A stretch of DNA of 12,093 nt from a virus, in IMG/VR virus record IMGVR_UViG_3300012992_000322; one strand, given 5' to 3'. Position 1 is the first letter of the stretch. Every line of letters begins with the position of its first letter. Below the pieces are notes generated by a model, which saw only the letters and a list, made by a program, of their open reading frames with translations, was not told the DNA's origin and did no database searches. Below are positions 1 to 12,093 of the stretch, piece after piece. Position numbers and translations under genes: made by a program.

Positions 1-15
1 CTCCCCCCCCCTCTG

Positions 16-42
16 AAAAAAATGCCCCCCAAAAATGGGGCA
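16..42 (-). terminator. Outward-facing intrinsic terminator at the left terminus
   Basis: Mirror of 12052..12078. The minus strand reads TGCCCC-8 nt loop-GGGGCA followed by T7. On the plus strand the hairpin is followed by A-rich sequence, so it can act only in the outward direction. Confidence 0.45.
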
Positions 43-142
43 AAAATTTAACCAAAAATTTGTACAAAATTTTCAACAAATTTGTGTCAAAAAATTTATA
101 CAATTTTTCAACGAAAATTTTAACGTGAAAAGTGTGTAAAAA
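16..142 (-). ncRNA. Candidate ITR-encoded small RNA, left copy (about 125 nt from the proximal promoter, about 270 nt if started at the distal promoter near 286)
   Basis: Delimited only by the predicted promoter and terminator. It has no SD or credible ORF. The function (a pRNA-like packaging RNA?) is speculation. Confidence 0.25.
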
Positions 143-148
143 ATTTGA

Positions 149-177
149 ATGATAACACGTGTAATTTATTGTGTCAA
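149..177 (-). promoter_or_regulatory. Outward-facing sigma-A-like promoter in the left ITR (terminus-proximal copy)
   Basis: Mirror of 11917..11945. The sequence is identical because it sits in the duplicated 115-bp module. Confidence 0.4.
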
Positions 178-292
178 AATTTATACAAAATTTTCAACAA
201 ATTTGTGTCATAATTTTCAACAAATTTGTGTCAAAAAATTTATACAATTTTTCAACGAAAATTTTAACGTGAAAAGTGTGTAAAAAATTTGA

Positions 293-321
293 ATGATAAC
301 ACGTGTAATTTATTGTGTCAA
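293..321 (-). promoter_or_regulatory. Outward-facing sigma-A-like promoter in the left ITR (distal copy): TTGACA-17 nt-TGtTATCAT on the minus strand
   Basis: Mirror of 11773..11801. It has a consensus -35, a 17-nt spacer, a TGn extended -10 and a 5/6 -10 (TATCAT). Confidence 0.4.
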
Positions 322-344
322 AATTTGTGTCAATAATTGTGTCG
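313..344. promoter_or_regulatory. Iteron-like array: TTGTGTCA, TTGTGTCA, TTGTGTCG starting at 313, 325 and 337 (exact 12-bp phasing) at the inner edge of the left ITR. Further TTGTGTCA copies lie at 82, 169, 203 and 226.
   Basis: The 8-mers and their spacing were read directly from the sequence. There are seven copies per 373-bp ITR. Any role as a protein-binding site is inference. Confidence 0.45.
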
Positions 345-444
345 ATAATTAGTAGAAAAGTTGAACGTGTGAATGTGTTTCTACTATATAAATATGTAAA
401 ATAGTGAAAATGAAAATTACATAAAAAAATTTTCAAAAAAACTA

Positions 445-473
445 TTGACAATAGTTTCTATTCATGATAGAAT
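445..473 (+). promoter_or_regulatory. Left-end inward promoter: TTGACA (445..450)-17 nt-TGaTAGAAT (465..473), preceded by an A/T-rich UP-like tract
   Basis: It has a consensus -35, a 17-nt spacer, an extended -10 TG and a 5/6 -10. It lies just outside the ITR and upstream of the first gene. Its upstream context AAAATTTTCAAAAAAACTATTGACA is paralogous to 11296..11322. Confidence 0.65.
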
Positions 474-1759: not shown

Positions 1760-1773
1760 AGGTGGTGGAAAAC

Positions 1774-3918
1774 TTGAAACAATATCAAGATTTTGATTTA
1801 GAAGAATTGAACGATATTAACATTGATATTGTTTCAAAATTCGATAATTATAGTAAAACGGTTAAAAAGTATTTTAATGTTGAAAGTGCATTTGATATTG
1901 AAACAAGTAGTGTTATGTTAGAAAATGAACAAAAATTTGCGTTCATGTATGAATGGACCTTTGGCATAAAAGACAAGAATTTTATTTGTTATGGAAGAAC
2001 GTGGGAAGAATTTAAAGATTTATGTAGACAATTGCAAGAATATTTCCTATTAGATAGTGAACACATTTTAGTTGTTTATGTTCACAATTTAAGTTATGAA
2101 TTTCAGTTCATGCGTAAATATTTTAATTGGTTAGATGTTTTTGCGGTTGATGAAAGAAAACCCGTTAAAGCATTATGTAGTTATGGTATTGAATTTAGAG
2201 ATAGTTATATTTTATCGGGTTATTCACTTGAAAAACTTGCTGAAAATTTAGTATCACATAACATTAAAAAATTAGTCGGGGATTTAGATTATAATTTAAC
2301 CCGTACACACATAACAGAATTAACAGAAAATGAACTTGCATATTGTAACAATGATGTTGAAATTGTTTTAGCGTATATAAATGAACAAATTGAACAATAC
2401 GGAAGTATAACAAAAATCCCTATGACAAATACGGGCAGAGTTAGAAATTTTGTTAAAGATAAATGTTATTTTACTGAAAAAAATCATAGGAAAAGCAGTA
2501 AAGGAAAATACCAACGTTACAAAGAATTGATGAATGAATTAACTTTAACTACGGGTGAATACACAATGTTAAAACGTTGTTTCATGGGGGGATTTACTCA
2601 CGCAAGTATGTTATATAGTGGGAAACTATTACATGATGTTGCAAGTATTGATTTTACAAGTAGTTACCCGTATGTTATGTTATCTGAAAAATTTCCCATG
2701 TCAAAGCCCGAAAAAGTAAACCCAACAAAAGAACAATTTTTAAAATGGGTTAATGATGATAATGTGGGGTTAATGTTTGTTGTACGTTTTAAGGGGTTGC
2801 AAAGTAAACTTTCATTTGAAACATATTTAAGTGAAAGTAAATGTGATGTTCTTGAAAATCCCATAATTAACAACGGTAGAGTTTTCAAAGCTGATACCGT
2901 ACAAACAACAATAACCGATATTGATTTTAAAATCCTGTATAAATGTTATACGTGGGATATTATCGAAATAGCAAACGTTCATAAATTTTATATGCAGTAT
3001 TTACCAAAACCAATACTACTTGCAATAGTGGAACTTTACGAAAAGAAAACCACATTAAAAGATGTATCGGGAAAAGAGGTTGAATATCTTGTAAATAAAG
3101 GTATGTTAAATTCTGTATATGGTATGTGTGTAACTGATATTGTACGTGATAATATAAGTTATAAAGATGATTGGCAACTTGAAAAATACACTATTGAAAT
3201 GATGAATGAACAAATTGAAAAATACAATAGTTCAAGCAATCGTTTTTTATATTATCCGTGGGGTGTTTGGGTAACTGCTTACGCACGTAAAAATTTATGG
3301 AATGGTATTCTTGAAATTGGTATTGATTATGTTTATAGTGATACCGATAGTGTAAAATTTCTGAATTATGAAAAACATAAAGAATACATAAACCGTTACA
3401 ATTTAGATGTGGAACGCAAGTTGAAAAAGATGTGTAAATTTAGGCAAATAGAATTTGAACGTTTAAAACCTAAAACAATAAAGGGTGTAGAAAAAATGAT
3501 AGGTGTATGGGATTTTGAGGGTATTTATACACATTTTAAAACGTTGGGTGCAAAACGTTATTTAGTACGTTCAAAAAAAGATGAAAAACTGCATTTAACC
3601 GTTGCAGGGCTTTCAAAACAAAACGGGGTTGAATATATGTTACGAATTTGTAATAATGATTATGAAAAAGTTTTTGCAAATTTTAATGATGATTTATATA
3701 TACCCGAAAATGAAACGGGTAAACATACTCACACATATATTGATAGCCCTATAACTTCTATGATAACAGATTACCAAAACAATGTTGTTGAAGTAACTGC
3801 ATTATCGGGTGTTCATTTATCCCCATGTGAATTTACTTTATCAATTAGCCGACAGTATAGTAAATTTTTACACGATTTACGAAACGGGTATTTATTCACG
3901 GGAACACGTGCTATTTAA
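1774..3918 (+). CDS. Family-B protein-primed DNA polymerase (phi29 gp2-like)
   Basis: The following motifs were read from the translation. Exo I FDIETSS. Exo II HNLSYEFQF. Exo III YCNNDVEI. Motif A DFTSSYPYVM (Dx2SLYP). Motif B KGMLNSVYGM (Kx3NSxYG). TAYARK (Tx2GR). Motif C YSDTDSV. KxY GAKRYL. The ORF is open from GTG 1762, but the GGTGG SD (1761..1768) favours TTG 1774 as the start. Confidence 0.95.
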   Translation: MKQYQDFDLEELNDINIDIVSKFDNYSKTVKKYFNVESAFDIETSSVMLENEQKFAFMYEWTFGIKDKNFICYGRTWEEFKDLCRQLQEYFLLDSEHILVVYVHNLSYEFQFMRKYFNWLDVFAVDERKPVKALCSYGIEFRDSYILSGYSLEKLAENLVSHNIKKLVGDLDYNLTRTHITELTENELAYCNNDVEIVLAYINEQIEQYGSITKIPMTNTGRVRNFVKDKCYFTEKNHRKSSKGKYQRYKELMNELTLTTGEYTMLKRCFMGGFTHASMLYSGKLLHDVASIDFTSSYPYVMLSEKFPMSKPEKVNPTKEQFLKWVNDDNVGLMFVVRFKGLQSKLSFETYLSESKCDVLENPIINNGRVFKADTVQTTITDIDFKILYKCYTWDIIEIANVHKFYMQYLPKPILLAIVELYEKKTTLKDVSGKEVEYLVNKGMLNSVYGMCVTDIVRDNISYKDDWQLEKYTIEMMNEQIEKYNSSSNRFLYYPWGVWVTAYARKNLWNGILEIGIDYVYSDTDSVKFLNYEKHKEYINRYNLDVERKLKKMCKFRQIEFERLKPKTIKGVEKMIGVWDFEGIYTHFKTLGAKRYLVRSKKDEKLHLTVAGLSKQNGVEYMLRICNNDYEKVFANFNDDLYIPENETGKHTHTYIDSPITSMITDYQNNVVEVTALSGVHLSPCEFTLSISRQYSKFLHDLRNGYLFTGTRAI

Positions 3919-3957: not shown

Positions 3958-5061
3958 ATGACAGAAAAGAAAACAAGTTTTTATAATCCGAAAAACATTA
4001 TAAACAAAAATGCAGTTTATAACGTGATTTTCGGGGAACGTTCCAACGGTAAAACCTATTCTATTTTAAAGTATGGTTTAGAACAATATTTTGAAAATGG
4101 GGGGCAACTAGCTATTGTAAGACGTTGGCAAGAAGATATAAGGGGAAAACGTGCCAGTGAAATTTTTAGTGCAATCAATGAAAACAATGAAGTTGAAAAA
4201 CTATCAAAAGGAAAATACAAAGGTGTAACGTTTTTTTCGGGTAGATATTATGTGTGTAACTATGATGAAAACGGTAAAACAATTTATAACATTGATACTG
4301 ATTGTATCGGTTATGTTTTTGCTTTATCTGAAACGGAACACAATAAAAGTATTTCATACCCAAAAATTACAACGATTATGTTTGATGAATTTTTGACTAA
4401 ACACGTTTATTTACAAGATGAATTTGTGTTATTTATGAATACAGTTTCTACCATTGTAAGACAACGAACAAACGTTAAAATTTTCATGTTAGGTAATACT
4501 GTAAACCGTTATTGTCCGTATTTTGAAGAAATGGGATTAGTACATATTAAAGAAATGAAACAAGGTACTATTGATATTTACACATACGGGAATAGTGAAT
4601 TGAAAGTTGCAGTTGAATATTGTAGCAGTATGCAGAAACAGAAAAAGAACAATTTTTATTTTGCATTTGACAACCCGAAATTGAATATGATAACAAGCGG
4701 TGCATGGGAGTTAGATATATACCCACATTTACCCGAAAAATATAAACCAACTCAAATAGAGTTTACTTATTTTATCATGTTTAACGGTATGACTTTTCAA
4801 TGTGAAATTATAACAGATAAAAACGGGGATATGTTCACATTTATTCACGAAAAAACAACTCCATTAAAAAATACTGACAATGATTTAATTTATACACTTG
4901 AATTTTGCCACAAATTGAACTATAATAGAAGTATATACAAACCAATAAATAAGTTACAAGAACGTATTTTGTGGTTTTTCAAAACAGACCGTGTATTTTA
5001 TCAAAATAACGGTGTTGGGGATACCATAAACAACTATTTAAAAATTTGTAAAGGATTTTAA
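3958..5061 (+). CDS. DNA encapsidation (packaging) ATPase, phi29 gp16-like
   Basis: The N-terminus SFYNPKNII...YNVIFGERSNGKTYSILKY...GGQLAIVRRW parallels the remembered gp16 LFYNPQKML...NFVIGARGIGKSY...GEQFIYVRRY. Walker A is GERSNGKT. A Walker B-like TIMFDEF is present. RBS AAAGAGG. Confidence 0.9.
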   Translation: MTEKKTSFYNPKNIINKNAVYNVIFGERSNGKTYSILKYGLEQYFENGGQLAIVRRWQEDIRGKRASEIFSAINENNEVEKLSKGKYKGVTFFSGRYYVCNYDENGKTIYNIDTDCIGYVFALSETEHNKSISYPKITTIMFDEFLTKHVYLQDEFVLFMNTVSTIVRQRTNVKIFMLGNTVNRYCPYFEEMGLVHIKEMKQGTIDIYTYGNSELKVAVEYCSSMQKQKKNNFYFAFDNPKLNMITSGAWELDIYPHLPEKYKPTQIEFTYFIMFNGMTFQCEIITDKNGDMFTFIHEKTTPLKNTDNDLIYTLEFCHKLNYNRSIYKPINKLQERILWFFKTDRVFYQNNGVGDTINNYLKICKGF

Positions 5062-5079: not shown

Positions 5080-6255
5080 ATGGGAAAGATTGACAAGTAT
5101 AACATGGGGTTAGAACATATTACAAAATATGATTTTAAAAACAAAGAAAAAAATTTGAATGATTATATAACATATATGTTAAATCGTTCTATTACTATGT
5201 TCAAGTATCATAATTTACCCGATACAATGCCACAAAGAGAAATTGAACTTTTGTTACAATGTAACGGTTGGGGTTGTGTTTGTGAAATTGAGGGTAATTT
5301 GTACTGTTTAAATGGCGGTTTGGGGGGTGTTCCAAATGCTTATAATATGCCAACTGAAATTATTATCAATAACCCGTACTTAAATTACAACAAAACTTTA
5401 ACTATTGATACAGATTGTGTTATTATTCCAAATGATAGTATGTATGTTGGTTTACTTCCTATGTATAACCGTTACTGTACAATGTTAGTTGAAAATGATA
5501 TAACAATGATACTTGCAACCGTGAATAAACGAGTTCAAAATCTTTTATCAGCTAATGATGATAACACGGTTGAAAGTGCAAAGAACTTTTTAAAAAAAGT
5601 TTTTGACGGGGAATTAGGTGTTATTGCTGAAAGTAAATTATTTGATACTTTAAAAGTTAATGCAAGTAGTGTTAATAGTACCGTTTCAATGACTGAATTG
5701 TTTGAGTTTGAACAATATGTAAAAGCAAGTTTATATAATGAAATAGGTTTAAGTGCTAATTATAATATGAAAAGGGAACGTCTGACAAGTGCAGAAGTTG
5801 AAACAAATACTGATAGCCTTTACCCGTTAGTTGATGATATGATTAACCAACGTAGAAAAGCAGTCGAAAAAATCAATGAAATGTTCGGTGTAAATATTGA
5901 AATTGAATTTAATTCAAGTTGGGATAACAGACCGTTTAACGGTGCAAGTATTCACAATGTAGAAGATGAAGTAAATCCAACGGAACTTGTAACAGAAGAT
6001 GTTGAAAACGTTGTGGAAGATACGGGAAAAGCAGAAACAGAAACAAATGTTGTTTCAGAGGAAGAAACAACAACCGAAACGGAAGATGAAAAAGAGGTAG
6101 AAACGGAAGAAGAAACAAATGAAGAAACAACAACCGAAACGGAAGATGAAAAAGAGGTAGAAACGGAAGAAGAAACAAATGAAGAAACAACAACCGAAAC
6201 AGAAGATGAAAAAGAGGTAGAAACGGAAGAAGAAACAAATGAAGAAAATGATTAA
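5080..6255 (+). CDS. Portal / head-tail connector protein, phi29 gp10-like, with an acidic repeat C-terminal extension
   Basis: Matches to remembered gp10 blocks: FKYHNLPDTM (FEWENLPPTI), VNKRVQNLLSANDDNT (NQNAQKTPVLIRANDNN), KRERLTSAEV (KKERMVTDEV) and RRKAVEKINEMFGVNIEIEF (REEACEKINELYGLNVKVKF). Confidence 0.9.
   Translation: MGKIDKYNMGLEHITKYDFKNKEKNLNDYITYMLNRSITMFKYHNLPDTMPQREIELLLQCNGWGCVCEIEGNLYCLNGGLGGVPNAYNMPTEIIINNPYLNYNKTLTIDTDCVIIPNDSMYVGLLPMYNRYCTMLVENDITMILATVNKRVQNLLSANDDNTVESAKNFLKKVFDGELGVIAESKLFDTLKVNASSVNSTVSMTELFEFEQYVKASLYNEIGLSANYNMKRERLTSAEVETNTDSLYPLVDDMINQRRKAVEKINEMFGVNIEIEFNSSWDNRPFNGASIHNVEDEVNPTELVTEDVENVVEDTGKAETETNVVSEEETTTETEDEKEVETEEETNEETTTETEDEKEVETEEETNEETTTETEDEKEVETEEETNEEND
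6061..6240 (+). repeat. Three tandem 60-bp repeats (6061, 6121, 6181) encoding (EETTTETEDEKEVETEEETN)x3 in the portal C-terminus
   Basis: Units 1 and 2 are identical. Unit 3 differs by one synonymous g->a at 6201. The repeats are in frame with the portal ORF. Confidence 0.97.
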
Positions 6256-7378: not shown

Positions 7379-8557
7379 ATGGAAGTTAAGCAGATTTATG
7401 CATTAATCAACAATGTAACAACTGAAATTTTGGGTAAGTCTGATTTAGTAAAAGAGGATTTGTCAAACGTTGTTGAAGTTGGTACAGAAATTTTCGGTGC
7501 AACAGAGGTTGACGGGTATGTTAAAAGTCTTGTAAATCATATCGGTAAAGTTATCTTTGTAAACAGACCGTATACGGGTAACATTCCGTCACTTATTATG
7601 GATAGTTGGGAATTTGGTAGTGTACTTGAAAAAATTAGTGCTGATATTCCAAACGCAACAGAAAATGAAAGTTGGGAACTTGAAAACGGTAGAGAATACA
7701 AACAGGATATTTTTTATAAGCCCTCTGTATCCGCAAAGTTCTTTAACAAAATGGTAACTTTTGAAGTGCCTATGTCCTTTACTGAAAAGCAAGTTAAACA
7801 GTCTTTCAGTTCCGCAAGTCAGTTGAACGGTTTTGTATCTATGATTTACAATGCAGTTGATAAATCTATGACTGTAAAAATTGATAGTCTTGTAATGCGA
7901 ACTATCAATAATATGATTGGTGAAACTGTATGGGCAGAATTTGCAACAGGAGAAAAAACAAAAGCACTTCCTGCAACATTTGCAAATTCCACGGGAACAA
8001 AAGCAGTAAATTTACTGAAACTTTACAATGATAAATTCGGTACAACTTTAACTGCTGAAAAGTGCATGACAGATAGTGACTTTATCAGATTTGCAAGTTA
8101 TACAATGGCTCTTTATGTTGACCGTCTTTCAAAAATTTCTACACTTTTCAACGTAGGGGGCAAGGAACGTTTTACAAGTTCTGAATACCTGCATATTGTA
8201 ATGTTGTCTGAATTTAAGAGCGGTGCAACTGCTTATTTGTCAAGTGATACATACCATGAAAATTATGTATCACTTCCAAATAGTGAAAGCGTTCCATATT
8301 GGCAGAGTTCGGGAACTGATTATAGTTTTGCAAACACTTCAAAAATTACTGTTAGAACTGCAACGGGCAATGATGTAACTATTGGTGGCATTCTTGCAAT
8401 CATGTTTGACCGTGATAGCATGGGCGTTTGTAATTCTGACAGACGTGTAACAACTAACTACAATGCAAAAGCAGAGTTTTTCAATAATTATTACAAATTT
8501 GACGCAAGTTATTTTAATGATTTGAATGAAAACTTTGTTGTGTTCTTTGTTGCGTAA
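7379..8557 (+). CDS. Major capsid protein, phi29 gp8-like (lacking the C-terminal Ig-like domain)
   Basis: [35 protein letters not shown] parallels the remembered gp8 [62 protein letters not shown] parallels [27 protein letters not shown]. It has a strong RBS and a strong downstream terminator. Confidence 0.85.
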   Translation: [392 protein letters not shown]

Positions 8558-9071: not shown

Positions 9072-10088
9072 ATGGCAACTTACAAGGTATCAATAACGGG
9101 AACATTAAAAAATTGTACTTGTAATTATTCAGACGGGGAAGTAATAACAAATGATAAACCAAATATTATTTTAACTGCTAATAACGGTTATGAATTTGAC
9201 GGGGAATTTTTATATAAATCAGGTCCAGTAACAAATATATTTAAGAATAGTACAGATAAAACAACATTAACTGCTTCTATTTCAAACGGTCGTAATTATA
9301 TTTTAAATGATGAATATATTGCAGTAAAAAAAGTTGAAAAAATCGGGGAATTTACCCGACTTTATAACCCTGTTGAAAGTGAATTAGCGGAACTTGCAAA
9401 AGTGCGTTTTCAGAATGATGTTGATATGGGGCAATATATAACTGCATTGTTTAAAATTCCGTTTGAAATTCCTACTGATTTAATTACAAATGAAAAACGT
9501 AACATTGTTTTAGGAAAATTTGATACAAATGTTAGTGTTAACGGTTTAACTACTTATAACATGGTTGTCGATATTGGTGTAATTACAGTACCCGAAAAGT
9601 ACGAAAATGTTTATGATTATATTGATACAGAATGTATATTAAATTTACCATATTTTGACAAGGTTTATTTAAGTAATGAATTTGTTATAGGGCAAACGGT
9701 AAGAATTGAATACATTATTGACTTGTATAGCGGTAACGCAACGTGTAACATTTATAGCAGTTTCACGGGGGGTATTGTTGAAAGTACAAACGGGGTTATT
9801 TGTTGTAACATTCCATTTGTACAAAAAACAAACAATAGTGTTGTTGGGTTAATCAGCAATATTAACAAGAATATTATTGATACTGCATACATTGAAGTTA
9901 TAAGAAATAAACCGTATAACGTTGAAACGGTGTTCGGTGCTGAAACTATTGACTTTGGTGTTATTGGAGATTATACGGGATATATTGAAGTTTCTGACGT
10001 TGTATTAAATTCAAGTGCTACAAATGAAGAAAAGAACGAAATAACCGACTTGTTAAAAGAAGGTGTGACGATAAATGAAAACAACTGA
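9072..10088 (+). CDS. Tail protein (338 aa), possibly the remainder of a split gp9-like tail knob, or a collar protein
   Basis: It starts 2 nt after the stop of the preceding ORF (TAAatATG). The C-terminal VVLNSSATNEEKNEITDLLKEGVTI resembles the gp9 C-terminal FISGDINNNDLQEIRTIFDNGITLW. The rest was not recognised. Confidence 0.4.
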   Translation: MATYKVSITGTLKNCTCNYSDGEVITNDKPNIILTANNGYEFDGEFLYKSGPVTNIFKNSTDKTTLTASISNGRNYILNDEYIAVKKVEKIGEFTRLYNPVESELAELAKVRFQNDVDMGQYITALFKIPFEIPTDLITNEKRNIVLGKFDTNVSVNGLTTYNMVVDIGVITVPEKYENVYDYIDTECILNLPYFDKVYLSNEFVIGQTVRIEYIIDLYSGNATCNIYSSFTGGIVESTNGVICCNIPFVQKTNNSVVGLISNINKNIIDTAYIEVIRNKPYNVETVFGAETIDFGVIGDYTGYIEVSDVVLNSSATNEEKNEITDLLKEGVTINENN

Positions 10089-10446
10089 TAAATTAGATGT
10101 TAAAGAAATAGAGTATGGAATATATTCTTATATTGTGCAAGATTTTGCAGAATACTTTAACAATCGTATGAACATTTACAAAGGTGTTGTTATGTATCTT
10201 GATACTATAACTAATCAGCATTTAATAACTACAACAACCAATAATATTTATGATGAATATAAAACATTTTGTGAAAATGAAAATATCAATTGTTTAAAAC
10301 CCAAATCATTTGCTAATGTTATGACGGGTATGTGTGGTTTTATAATCACACGTACAAGTCATAGAAACGGAAAAGATAAAAACGGTAAAGAAATACGCAA
10401 GTTTGAAACGTATTATGAAATGGGGGGTAAAAATGAAAATTCTTGA
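10075..10446 (+). CDS. Small protein (123 aa) with a winged-helix domain of the P4/D5 primase C-terminal type, a putative DNA-binding protein
   Basis: IYDEYKTFCENENINCLKPKSFANVMTGMCGFIITRTSHRNGK fits the Y-x-x-Y-x-x-(W/F)-C...(S/K)-x-x-x-F...R pattern of phage/plasmid primase C-terminal domains. It overlaps both neighbouring genes. Confidence 0.4.
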   Translation: MKTTDKLDVKEIEYGIYSYIVQDFAEYFNNRMNIYKGVVMYLDTITNQHLITTTTNNIYDEYKTFCENENINCLKPKSFANVMTGMCGFIITRTSHRNGKDKNGKEIRKFETYYEMGGKNENS

Positions 10447-11299
10447 TGATGTTTTAGCACTAAAATTAGTTTACAATATTCAAAATGAAATAGATGTTGA
10501 ACAATCATATAATAAATTGATTAAAATGTGTGAACATATTGTAAAATGGTTTTTGCGTAAATATACCCCTATTATTCTAAAGTACGATTTAATTTATGAT
10601 GATGTGAAACAAGAAATGTATATAAGGTTATTACAAGCAGTTAAAAGTTGCCCCGTTAATTGTAAAAATTTTTATAATTGGTTAATGCCACATTTACGGG
10701 GTAGTTGTTTAAACTATTTCAAGTTTAATACTAATAGAATTACACCATATAGCAAAAACAAAGAAAAACGATTAGAAGAATTTAAAAGTTTTTCGTTAAA
10801 TAATAATATCAATGAAGAAAATGAATATCTTGATTTGCTGGCATATAATGATAGTTCTATAAATGATTTTCTTGACCATGATTATAACAAATATATCTAT
10901 GCAAAATTAAAAGGTTTTTTGTATTATCGTTTTGAAAATATAAATGTTGATTTATATTTTGATTTTTATAAATTAACTTTTAATGAATTAGAACATAAAT
11001 ATAAAAAACCGATTTTAAATATTATGCGTTACTGTACATTTATTACAACCGTTCTAAAAACTGATTATGATTTTAAAATATTTTGTGAAAAGTATTTAAA
11101 AGAAATTATAACTGAAAGACGTTTTAAACAATGGGAATATCAAAATAAAATTAATGGTAAAATTGATGTTACACACCTTTTAAATGATGAAATAGTAACA
11201 AATTTTTCACATACTTCAATATTAAATTTTGAAATTGGTAAAGATGTAAAAATACATAACTATTTTCGTGTACGTTTTCCACAACAAAATTTAATATAA
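10433..11299 (+). CDS. Divergent sigma-70 family (ECF/group-4-like) factor, 288 aa
   Basis: YDDVKQEMYIRLLQAVKSCPVNCKNFYNWLMPHLRGSCLNYFK aligns by eye with ECF region 2 (e.g. AEDIAQEAFIRAYVNIDSFDINRKFSTWLYRIATNLTIDRIRK). A possible region-4 HTH lies around LTFNELEHKYKKPILNIMRY. The ORF is open from TTG 10403, but the GGGGGG SD (10422..10427) favours ATG 10433. Confidence 0.5.
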   Translation: MKILDDVLALKLVYNIQNEIDVEQSYNKLIKMCEHIVKWFLRKYTPIILKYDLIYDDVKQEMYIRLLQAVKSCPVNCKNFYNWLMPHLRGSCLNYFKFNTNRITPYSKNKEKRLEEFKSFSLNNNINEENEYLDLLAYNDSSINDFLDHDYNKYIYAKLKGFLYYRFENINVDLYFDFYKLTFNELEHKYKKPILNIMRYCTFITTVLKTDYDFKIFCEKYLKEIITERRFKQWEYQNKINGKIDVTHLLNDEIVTNFSHTSILNFEIGKDVKIHNYFRVRFPQQNLI

Positions 11300-11316: not shown

Positions 11317-11345
11317 TTGCATTTTTCTATTATAAGTAGTATAAT
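11317..11345 (+). promoter_or_regulatory. Right-end promoter: TTGCAT (11317..11322)-17 nt-TATAAT (11340..11345)
   Basis: It has a 5/6 -35, a 17-nt spacer and a perfect -10. Its upstream context AAAATTTTGAAAAAAACTATTGCA is nearly identical to that of the left-end promoter. Confidence 0.65.
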
Positions 11346-11400: not shown

Positions 11401-11667
11401 ATGACAAACACAATTAAAATCAAAGTACCTGTAACTACTGTAACAACTGCCATAATGTATAACGATAATACGTGCGAAATTAAAACATTTGATTTATATG
11501 GTAAATACAGTAATGCAAGTGCAAAAAAGTATTTTAAAGAAAACCCCATTGACAATGCAAAAAATGTTACTATTCTTGATACTGTAAAGAATGTTATAAA
11601 CTATGAAATTGAACTTGAAAAACTTTTACCCGTACTTGGTGAAAGTAGTAAAGTAACTGTTGAATAA
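11401..11667 (+). CDS. Hypothetical 88-aa protein in its own promoter-terminator cassette
   Basis: RBS [12 protein letters not shown] sits 7 nt upstream of the ATG. A dedicated promoter lies upstream and a terminator downstream. No family was recognised. Confidence 0.65.
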   Translation: MTNTIKIKVPVTTVTTAIMYNDNTCEIKTFDLYGKYSNASAKKYFKENPIDNAKNVTILDTVKNVINYEIELEKLLPVLGESSKVTVE

Positions 11668-11691: not shown

Positions 11692-11717
11692 ACGTTGTAG
11701 AAATACAACGTTTTTTA
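11692..11717 (+). terminator. Intrinsic terminator of the last gene, abutting the right ITR
   Basis: ACGTTGTA-GAAA-TACAACGT forms an 8-bp stem with a GNRA-type loop, followed by a T-run (11711..11716). Confidence 0.75.
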
Positions 11718-11749
11718 TTGTTCACACGTTCAACTTTTCTACTAATTAT

Positions 11750-11781
11750 CGACACAATTATTGACACAAATTTTGACACAA
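11750..11781. promoter_or_regulatory. Mirror iteron-like array in the right ITR (CGACACAA, TGACACAA, TGACACAA at 12-bp spacing)
   Basis: Reverse complement of 313..344. Confidence 0.45.
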
Positions 11782-11801
11782 TAAATTACACGTGTTATCA
11801 T
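11773..11801 (+). promoter_or_regulatory. Outward-facing promoter in the right ITR (distal copy): TTGACA (11773..11778)-17 nt-TGtTATCAT (11793..11801)
   Basis: Read directly from the sequence. The -35 hexamer is the reverse complement of part of the TTGTGTCAA motif. Confidence 0.4.
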
Positions 11802-11916
11802 TCAAATTTTTTACACACTTTTCACGTTAAAATTTTCGTTGAAAAATTGTATAAATTTTTTGACACAAATTTGTTGAAAATTATGACACAAATTTGTTGA
11901 AAATTTTGTATAAATT

Positions 11917-11945
11917 TTGACACAATAAATTACACGTGTTATCAT
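11917..11945 (+). promoter_or_regulatory. Outward-facing promoter in the right ITR (terminus-proximal copy)
   Basis: Identical sequence 144 bp downstream of the distal copy, within the second copy of the 115-bp module. Confidence 0.4.
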
Positions 11946-11951
11946 TCAAAT

Positions 11952-12078
11952 TTTTTACACACTTTTCACGTTAAAATTTTCGTTGAAAAATTGTATAAAT
12001 TTTTTGACACAAATTTGTTGAAAATTTTGTACAAATTTTTGGTTAAATTTTTGCCCCATTTTTGGGGGGCATTTTTTT
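11952..12078 (+). ncRNA. Candidate ITR-encoded small RNA, right copy (about 125 nt, or about 270 nt from the distal promoter near 11808)
   Basis: Bounded by the predicted promoter and terminator. It has no SD or plausible ORF and is AU-rich with several local palindromes (ACAAATTTGT, TTGTACAA). Expression and function are unverified. Confidence 0.25.
12052..12078 (+). terminator. Outward-facing intrinsic terminator at the right terminus
   Basis: TGCCCC (12052..12057), an 8-nt loop, GGGGCA (12066..12071), then T7 (12072..12078), 15 nt from the genome end. Confidence 0.45.
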
Positions 12079-12093
12079 CAGAGGGGGGGGGAG

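Follow-up and report, generated by a model that had tools for sequence, protein, structure and literature searches.

Outward promoters in the iteron-rich inverted terminal repeats of a small phi29-like podovirus: packaging RNA gene or overlay on an origin region?

Whether packaging RNA (pRNA) is used outside the Bacillus phi29-like phages has been raised explicitly as a question for the 11-12-kb Astrithrvirus-like group (PMC8472413), and the ends of IMG/VR virus record IMGVR_UViG_3300012992_000322 pose it in concrete form. This stretch of 12,093 bases (the window), with 29% G+C, represents nearly the whole linear genome of a small podovirus of the phi29 type; its polymerase shares 53-58% identity with the enzymes of the Astrithrvirus-like isolates DU_PP_III, Phanie and Astrid. 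Each of its inverted terminal repeats (ITRs) carries a promoter-like and terminator-like unit that points outwards, and an earlier note, made by reading the letters, proposed that the unit yields a small RNA and possibly an analogue of pRNA. The first part of this proposal is plausible and the second finds no support: the unit does not look like a packaging RNA gene, and the account to which we incline, at slightly better than even confidence, is that of an iteron-rich origin region of phased repeats on which a dispensable outward promoter is superimposed in some lineages. The elements in question are the following.

1..373, - strand: left ITR read outward, 373 nt, 100% complementary to the right arm
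11721..12093, + strand: right ITR read outward, 373 nt, 100% complementary to the left arm
11773..11801, + strand: inner outward sigma-A-type promoter-like site, TTGACA-17-TGtTATCAT, 11/12 positions, TG present
11917..11945, + strand: outer (terminus-proximal) promoter-like site, a copy through the 144-bp duplication, 11/12 positions, TG present
293..321, - strand: left-ITR mirror of the inner promoter-like site, 11/12
149..177, - strand: left-ITR mirror of the outer promoter-like site, 11/12
12052..12078, + strand: subterminal hairpin TGCCCC-N8-GGGGCA followed by T7, terminator-like in the outward direction only
16..42, - strand: left-ITR mirror of the subterminal hairpin and T-run
12079..12093, + strand: inner part of the putative G-rich (C-rich on the 5' strand) terminal origin motif CAGAGGGGGGGGGAG, truncated in the window
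11692..11718, + strand: intrinsic terminator of the last gene, an 8-bp stem followed by TTTTTATTGT, immediately before the ITR
445..473, + strand: probable early promoter, TTGACA-17-TGaTAGAAT, just outside the left ITR and pointing inward

The layout described by the earlier note is present. The promoter-like sequence occurs twice per ITR, pointing outwards and mirrored at the left end, and it is carried by the 115-bp module, an exact run (11768-11882 = 11912-12026) within a tandem duplication with a period of 144. The subterminal stem (12052-12071) has six pairs, five of them GC, before the T7, and has its U-run only on the outward side. The terminator of the last gene, called just before the ITR (11692-11711) and conserved across all close relatives, insulates the unit as had been claimed. 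That the ITRs are an artefact of assembly was ruled out, as the same ends are carried by many independent contigs.

Pure chance in AT-rich DNA is scarcely credible as the source of these motifs. Weak promoter-like matches over the whole window are indeed not enriched (90 found, 71.6 +/- 9.4 expected), but sites that match at least 11 of the 12 positions and have the TG number five (the four in the ITRs and that at 445-473) against 0.06 +/- 0.24 in dinucleotide shuffles, the probability of such a -10 after any given TTGACA being 0.003. Terminator-like sites are likewise in excess (10 observed, 3.8 expected), with the other strong ones at operon ends, and chance is rejected by these shuffle tests. 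The site at 445-473 is the only other promoter in the window equal in quality to those in the ITRs, and is probably the early promoter for the gene block. To judge from its match to the consensus, the outward promoter would be strong and very probably recognised by host RNA polymerase.

The predicted outward transcripts are about 127 nt (11952-12078) and about 271 nt long, close to the 125 and 270 nt estimated before, and on reading both sequences no ribosome-binding site was seen, nor any open reading frame (ORF) beyond a five-codon ATG frame. A short non-coding transcript is thus plausible in the strain represented by the window. The distance of its end from the genome terminus, put at 15 nt in the earlier note, needs correction. 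The window is probably short by some 12-15 nt (...GGGGGGATAACCC) at each end (1-15 and 12079-12093), and the assembly stops inside the terminal C/G runs at both. Since the ends of relatives extend further, the T-run ends about 27-30 nt from the true terminus.

The relatives compared are designated by L-numbers. Strains of the same phage are L102-L111, and the nearest lineages, by identity of the last protein, are L133-136 (93%), L127/L002 (89%), L001 (88%), L132 (85%) and L120-125 (82%); further relatives are L084-L099 (54-80% polymerase identity), a 44%-GC clade of about 60 genomes (L006-L068) and isolated phages. The end of L001 continues as ...CAGAGGGGGGGAGGGGGGAT and that of L085 as ...GGGGGGAGGGGGGGGATAACCC, the ATAACCC end being found also in L089 and Phanie, and the general pattern is ...CAGAGGGGGG(A)GGGGGG(G)ATAACCC.

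The hypothesis that the ITR transcript is a two-copy, ITR-borne pRNA analogue, bridging connector and ATPase as in phi29, has some circumstantial attraction. Genes for a gp10-like connector and a gp16-like packaging ATPase are present, as the earlier note stated and as in phi29, and no non-coding stretch outside the ITRs is long enough for such an RNA. The phi29 pRNA, like the predicted transcript, is small and non-coding and is transcribed towards the adjacent genome end from an early sigma-A promoter (A1 promoter 328-356, pRNA core 318-201). Moreover, a pRNA has been claimed for Cp-1: PMC6266182 speaks of 'the pRNA of Cp1' with reference to Martin et al. 1996.

The direct comparisons nevertheless speak against this hypothesis. 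The Rfam pRNA model RF00044 gave no match in the window at E <= 10, while phi29 201-318, the positive control, scored 145.4 bits; the model is built on Bacillus phages, and a distant analogue could escape it. With all Rfam families at the same cut-off the window gave only chance-level matches (e.g. RyhB and Ysr49, about 19 bits over the terminator), and nothing relevant was found in Cp-1 1-400. The minimum-energy and centroid folds of 11952-12078 both consist of one long AU hairpin and the terminator hairpin with an unpaired 5' end, and a three-way-junction core with paired 5' and 3' ends (A-helix) was not found in them. The folding z-score of this RNA (-3.6) is largely due to the terminator hairpin, without which it falls to -1.8.

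Among the more divergent relatives only L001 has a homologue of the transcript over its full length, and in it the fold is lost (z = -0.5 with the terminator, +1.0 without), eight of the 25 pairs of the long helix being broken. Its substitutions are instructive: TTGTAYAA becomes TTGCACAA in both direct copies, and both copies of TTGTAYAAATTTT become TTGCACAAATTTT, which are unable to pair. On these sequences, what the L001 substitutions preserve is direct DNA repeats, not base pairs, and the compensatory changes looked for across related ITRs are absent. The covariation score of the ITR transcript, from three sequences only, does not rise above shuffles (53/500), and an alignment of the outward regions of Cp-1, Cp-5 and Cp-7 shows no covariation either (covariation term +0.89). 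The unit thus differs from the phi29 pRNA in lacking a covariance-model match, a three-way junction, a conserved structure or length and conservation in relatives, and it is present in two copies inside a long ITR where phi29 has a single copy beside a 6-bp ITR. Together with the strain-to-strain variation in transcript length and content, and with the absence of the promoter from sister lineages and from every other phage in the group with the same connector and ATPase, this makes a pRNA analogue very improbable. The promoter, the terminator or both are missing in relatives and the variation is without covariation, the pattern that the earlier note had itself named as fatal to its pRNA interpretation.

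The fate of the individual elements among relatives is the more informative evidence. The promoter hexamers are kept in strains L102-L110, in the L002/L127 type and in L001, where the spacer is 16 nt, without the TG, and differs at four positions besides the one in length. The -35 is weakened to TTGATA in L133-135. In L132, L136 and the second module of L133/L134 the sequence reads TTGA(C/T)ACAATAAATTACACACTTTTCACG, the 25 nt that bear the -10 being absent between two TTACAC repeats. L120/L122, which have the same winged-helix and sigma-like gene pair as the window and 82% identity in the last protein, have no promoter-like sites at all and only T4 after the hairpin. Neither an outward promoter nor a hairpin with a U-tract was found in the ITRs of L085, L089, L091, L093, DU_PP_III, Phanie, Astrid or the 44%-GC clade, and the distant relatives without the promoter all encode the same connector and ATPase. 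An exact-pattern scan of viral contigs with a conserved 27-mer of the module retrieved L001 and L002 only.

The terminator and the spacing are no more constant. The T-run after the CCCC/GGGG stem has seven residues in the window, six in L106, five in L001 and four in L120/L122, and in L085 and L089 a hairpin occurs without a T-run. The module is single in L106 and L001 and double in the window, L103 and L127; the outer promoter-like site is missing in L001 and in single-module strains such as L106. The module order is rearranged in L102, L104 has three copies of a 48-nt sub-repeat, and in L133 a 47-nt unit is repeated 4.8 times, which takes the ITR beyond 460 nt, so that the distance from promoter to terminator differs several-fold between strains. 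The outward unit therefore looks like a dispensable, lineage-restricted feature.

What, then, are the ITRs made of? The TTGACA of the promoter-like sites is not a lone -35 box but part of a 9-nt iteron, TTGACACAA, of which it forms the core. The ten exact copies of this iteron all lie in the ITRs and point outwards, with none in the intervening 11.3 kb; the -35 of the inner site is the third iteron of a 12-nt array. The repeats of the right ITR are the following.

11744..11791, + strand: array of TTGACACAA-type iterons at 12-nt spacing (TCGACACAA, TTGACACAA, TTGACACAA and degenerate ATTACACGT; period 12, 3.2 copies)
11768..12038, + strand: tandem duplication of the 144-bp module (1.9 copies, 97% matches)
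11844..11925 and again 11988-12035, + strand: 23-nt sub-repeats (TGACACAAATTTGTTGAAAATTA and relatives; period 23, 2.0 copies, 100%)

Spacings in the 23-nt family are 23, 23, 11, 87 and 23, and in L133 these sub-repeats are expanded into the 47-nt unit. Over all, the repeats are phased at about 12, 23 and 47 nt, with sub-repeats of 47-48 nt in other strains. Each ITR also has CACGT(G/T) boxes, a C-rich terminus and the subterminal CCCC/GGGG hairpin, in which the 3' arm provides the conserved G-box. Copies of the TTGACACAA iteron are retained in L084, L085, L092-L094 and L120-L125, and among relatives iterons occur without any -10 in L085 (11-nt spacing), L120/L122 (12 nt) and L089 (opposite orientation). 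In L133-L135 every copy is TTGATACAA (nine in L133, six in L134) and none has the TTGACACAA form; the iteron copies within one genome thus change together, a case of concerted change.

The terminus persists as well. The G-box, G-run and ATAACCC architecture is found in L001, L085, L089, L091, L093, L120, Phanie and DU_PP_III, with a related form in Cp-1, and the order hairpin, GGGG(A/T), 8-14 nt, G-runs and ATAACCC recurs in L085, L089, L093, Phanie and DU_PP_III. The window, L001 and L120 have the CCCC/GGGG stem in common, each with a loop of its own. In other lineages a different hairpin is located at this subterminal GGGG(A/T) box or next to it, and 8-14 nt separate the box from the terminal G-runs. 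Judged by these comparisons, what is conserved across the relatives is a set of DNA elements (iterons, subterminal hairpin with G-box, terminus), and the repeat number, the -10 and the U-tract are not.

We note that a palindrome, GTTCCACGTGAAACA, with a CACGTG core, lies at the inner ITR boundary in several distant lineages (L026 11403-11465; also L086, L089 and L126). The window has a degenerate version, CACACGTTCAAC, at 11721-11735, and a CACGTG in the promoter-like spacer at 11789-11794. The boundary palindrome resembles a conserved target of a dimeric DNA-binding protein.

The account that we prefer starts from these elements. The 373-bp ITRs would be the origin-proximal regions of a protein-primed linear genome, and their phased iterons may form an array to which a DNA-binding protein of the phage binds, organising the ends for terminal-protein priming, on the model of the phi29 p6 complex, with the hairpin, G-box and C-run as the putative core origin. 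Candidates for the binding protein are the product of the last gene, a conserved helix-turn-helix protein (963-1181) and the product of the first gene. In the window species and the two nearest lineages one iteron has TATCAT 16-17 nt downstream of it, which would be an acquired -10; host RNA polymerase would very probably bind there and transcribe outwards, until the subterminal hairpin and T-run release it some 27-30 nt before the true end and before the core origin. The resulting RNA would be short, AU-rich, essentially unstructured and non-coding, of about 125 nt or more where modules repeat, and its transcription would be accessory and dispensable, superimposed on the origin region.

Auxiliary origin regions within ITRs are familiar from other protein-primed replicons, as in the NFI/Oct-1 sites of adenovirus and the ITRs of PRD1. 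There, as proposed here for putative sites, a terminal core origin adjoins binding sites for transcription-type factors that stimulate initiation, although the proteins and the sequences are different. In phi29, p6 binds as one dimer per 24 bp, or one monomer per 12 bp, and its complex at the genome ends activates initiation and also covers and represses the end-proximal early promoter C2 (PMC4974454). The likeness lies in end DNA with a periodicity of about 12/24 bp, to be set beside the 12, 23 and 47 nt that overlap the promoter here. However, what p6 recognises is bendability, not an iteron sequence such as that of the window; the ITR of phi29 measures no more than 6 bp, and C2 points inward, unlike the outward promoter of the window.

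Several points weigh against this account. The promoter match is far above chance even when the iterons are allowed for (0.003 per TTGACA), and the unchanged hexamers of L001, in the face of its spacer changes, are the pattern of a selected promoter. The Streptococcus phages Cp-1 and Cp-7 are laid out in this way too, their hexamers being identical although the region downstream has diverged. Several of the relatives' ITRs were taken from metagenome contigs which break off within the repeats, so that absences near the very ends cannot always be scored. Finally, the iteron array is a putative protein-binding site, proposed by analogy, and the p6-like assignment of the last gene is weak.

These points bear most directly on the view that the ITRs contain a functional outward transcription unit, lineage-specific but selected where present, in which transcription or the RNA acts in cis to help the origin. 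For example, the polymerase might open the AT-rich ITR just inside the terminus while the terminator protects the last 30 bp or so, where terminal protein and DNA polymerase initiate. We regard this as unlikely, though the most credible of the alternatives. It accommodates a near-consensus extended -10 promoter equal in quality to the early promoter of the genome, its retention in L001, and the correct order and orientation of promoter, hairpin and U-tract at both ends, as well as the similar signals of the Cp phages. It is harder to square with the loss of the -10 in L120/L122, L132, L136 and all more distant relatives, with the decay of the U-tract to T4 in L120 and its absence in L085, and with the variable distance from promoter to terminator.

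The comparison with the Cp phages also shows that the feature is not without precedent. The GenBank records of Cp-1 (Z47794) and Cp-7 (LK392619) annotate outward -35/-10 signals inside the ITRs. Like the window, these are protein-primed podoviruses with long ITRs (236 bp annotated in Cp-1), a near-consensus promoter of the TTGACA-16/17-TGnTATAAT type directed at the genome end (150-177 nt from the end in Cp-1, 149-177 in the slightly truncated coordinates of the window) and no protein gene downstream of it, and the Cp phages share with L001 and the window a subterminal GGGGGAATTTTT box and a G-run terminus. In contrast, the transcribed bodies have no sequence similarity, Cp-1 lacks both the TTGACACAA iteron arrays and the tandem module, and the promoter is conserved across the available relatives of the Cp phages where it is present or absent among close relatives of the window. 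All these signals, in the window as in the Cp phages, are predictions. Outward promoters in ITRs are thus already a known, though only predicted, kind of feature among protein-primed podoviruses, and the suggestion that an ITR-borne RNA of this sort would be new is weakened by these annotations, and by the Cp-1 pRNA claim of 1996 that is cited in PMC6266182. There is a slim chance that the outward ITR unit is a functional small-RNA gene in two copies, similar in design to the ITR promoters of the Cp phages, whose product is a non-homologous substitute for pRNA or takes part in origin firing, and that lineages without it use another solution.

The terminal sequences of Cp-1 invite a further comparison. 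Its end reads GGGGGAATTTTT-GAAAAA-GGGGTGGGGGAG, that of L001 GGGGGAATTTTT-CAGA-GGGGGGGAGGGGGG, and when Cp-1 (L113) 1-70 is set against L001 12567-12636 the same ordered boxes appear: TCAAATTT, GGGGGAATTTTT, a short spacer and G-runs interrupted by one base. This ordered set makes up the terminal 45 nt or so, and is common to Cp-1 and the lineage of the window despite their distant kinship, which suggests an old core-origin design.

A trans-acting regulatory small RNA that pairs with host or phage messengers was also considered. The promoter and terminator are plausible for such an RNA, and a 40-nt stretch is 73% complementary to 5124-5163, near the start of the connector gene. However, this level of complementarity is ordinary in a genome of 71% A+T, the body of the RNA consists of variable repeats, the promoter is dispensable in close relatives and no Rfam family matches, all of which make a role of this kind improbable.

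A two-copy ITR pRNA, if real, would have answered the question raised for the Astrithrvirus-like group, and this locus gives no positive answer. Near-identical genomes can do without the unit and the rest of the group lacks it, so these phages probably package their DNA without an ITR-encoded RNA. What is gained is the ITR architecture of a little-studied group, with its conserved terminus and subterminal hairpin and G-box, its lineage-specific iterons that change in concert and its frequent repeat expansion and contraction, and these elements offer tangible starting points for work in vitro on protein-primed replication and for footprinting.

All credible genes of the window are on the + strand, between 502 and 11667, and those with recognisable products or a bearing on the ITRs are listed here.

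502-897, + strand: first gene
963-1181: conserved helix-turn-helix protein
1762-3918, + strand: protein-primed-type family-B DNA polymerase (PHROG 1907, E = 7e-80)
3958-5061, + strand: gp16-like packaging ATPase
5080-6255, + strand: gp10-like connector
7379-8557, + strand: phi29-type major head protein
11401..11667, + strand: last gene, encoding an 88-residue protein, a weak p6-like double-stranded-DNA-binding candidate

An ORF directly upstream of the polymerase gene (1172-1759) is conserved in all relatives and is without a family match, and no exact-protein record was found for the product of the first gene. The product of the last gene matches PHROG 6370 ('dsDNA binding protein') with an E-value of 7.5e-4, two of the nine family members matching; against phi29 p6 itself, BLASTP (E = 0.078) and hhalign (probability 0.6%) were both non-significant. 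That it is a p6-like protein which might bind the ITR repeats is a weak lead. The last gene has its own promoter-like site (TTGCAT-17-TATAAT, 11317-11345, + strand) as well as its own terminator, and could be expressed independently of the long rightward operon. It occurs, identical or nearly so, on well over a hundred metagenome contigs, and those that were read include pig-gut and other gut samples.

The 298-residue ORF at 10403-11299 (+ strand) encodes a sigma-70 region-2 domain (Pfam PF04542, 25.7 bits, above the cut-off) and matches TIGR02937 (sigma70-ECF) with an E-value of 5.5e-9, below the cut-off. A sigma-like factor is unusual for a 12-kb phage. Upstream of it, and overlapping it, is a 123-residue ORF (10075-10446, + strand) with a Cdc6-type winged helix. 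This pair of genes is confined to the lineage of the window (the window, L001, L002, L082, L120-L124 and L127-L136), and other relatives have different genes at the position, of the lysis type (CHAP/CW_7) in L125 and L126. A possible link between the sigma-like protein and the ITRs was sought through the ECF-type promoter motif AAC-N15-17-CGT, which gave four scattered matches with no pattern.

The C-terminus of the connector (6061-6247, + strand) is encoded by 3.1 copies of a 60-nt unit (99% matches), giving an acidic tail rich in E and T, and L099 has a different repeat, of ETTD type, at the same C-terminal place. In a whole-window megablast against phages the sole match was a 225-nt polymerase stretch in DU_PP_III, and a scan of the window for tRNA and tmRNA genes found none. 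A host search among genome contigs returned three contigs of metagenome-assembled genomes, including Clostridia and Treponema, none with the full ITR.

In the 44%-GC clade the ITRs are built, over the terminal 250-850 nt or so, of two to more than five tandem units, each with TGGCACGGTTTTTGCT, which we take to be a perfect match to the sigma-54 -24/-12 consensus TGGCACG-N4-TTGCW. All of these (e.g. L026 11480-11626) point inward, towards genes that converge from both ends. Eight IMG/VR contigs of this clade (L030, L034, L044, L045, L046, L047, L055 and L067) have sequencing-adapter sequence at their ends, for example GACGTGTGCTCTTCCGATCT and AGATGTGTATAAGAGACAG, a contamination in public records. 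In L047 the adapter is fused directly to AAAGGTACGC, which therefore marks the physical end of the genome. The number of TGGCACGGTTTTTGCT units differs between genomes of the clade, and the ITR of L054 extends to 875 nt.

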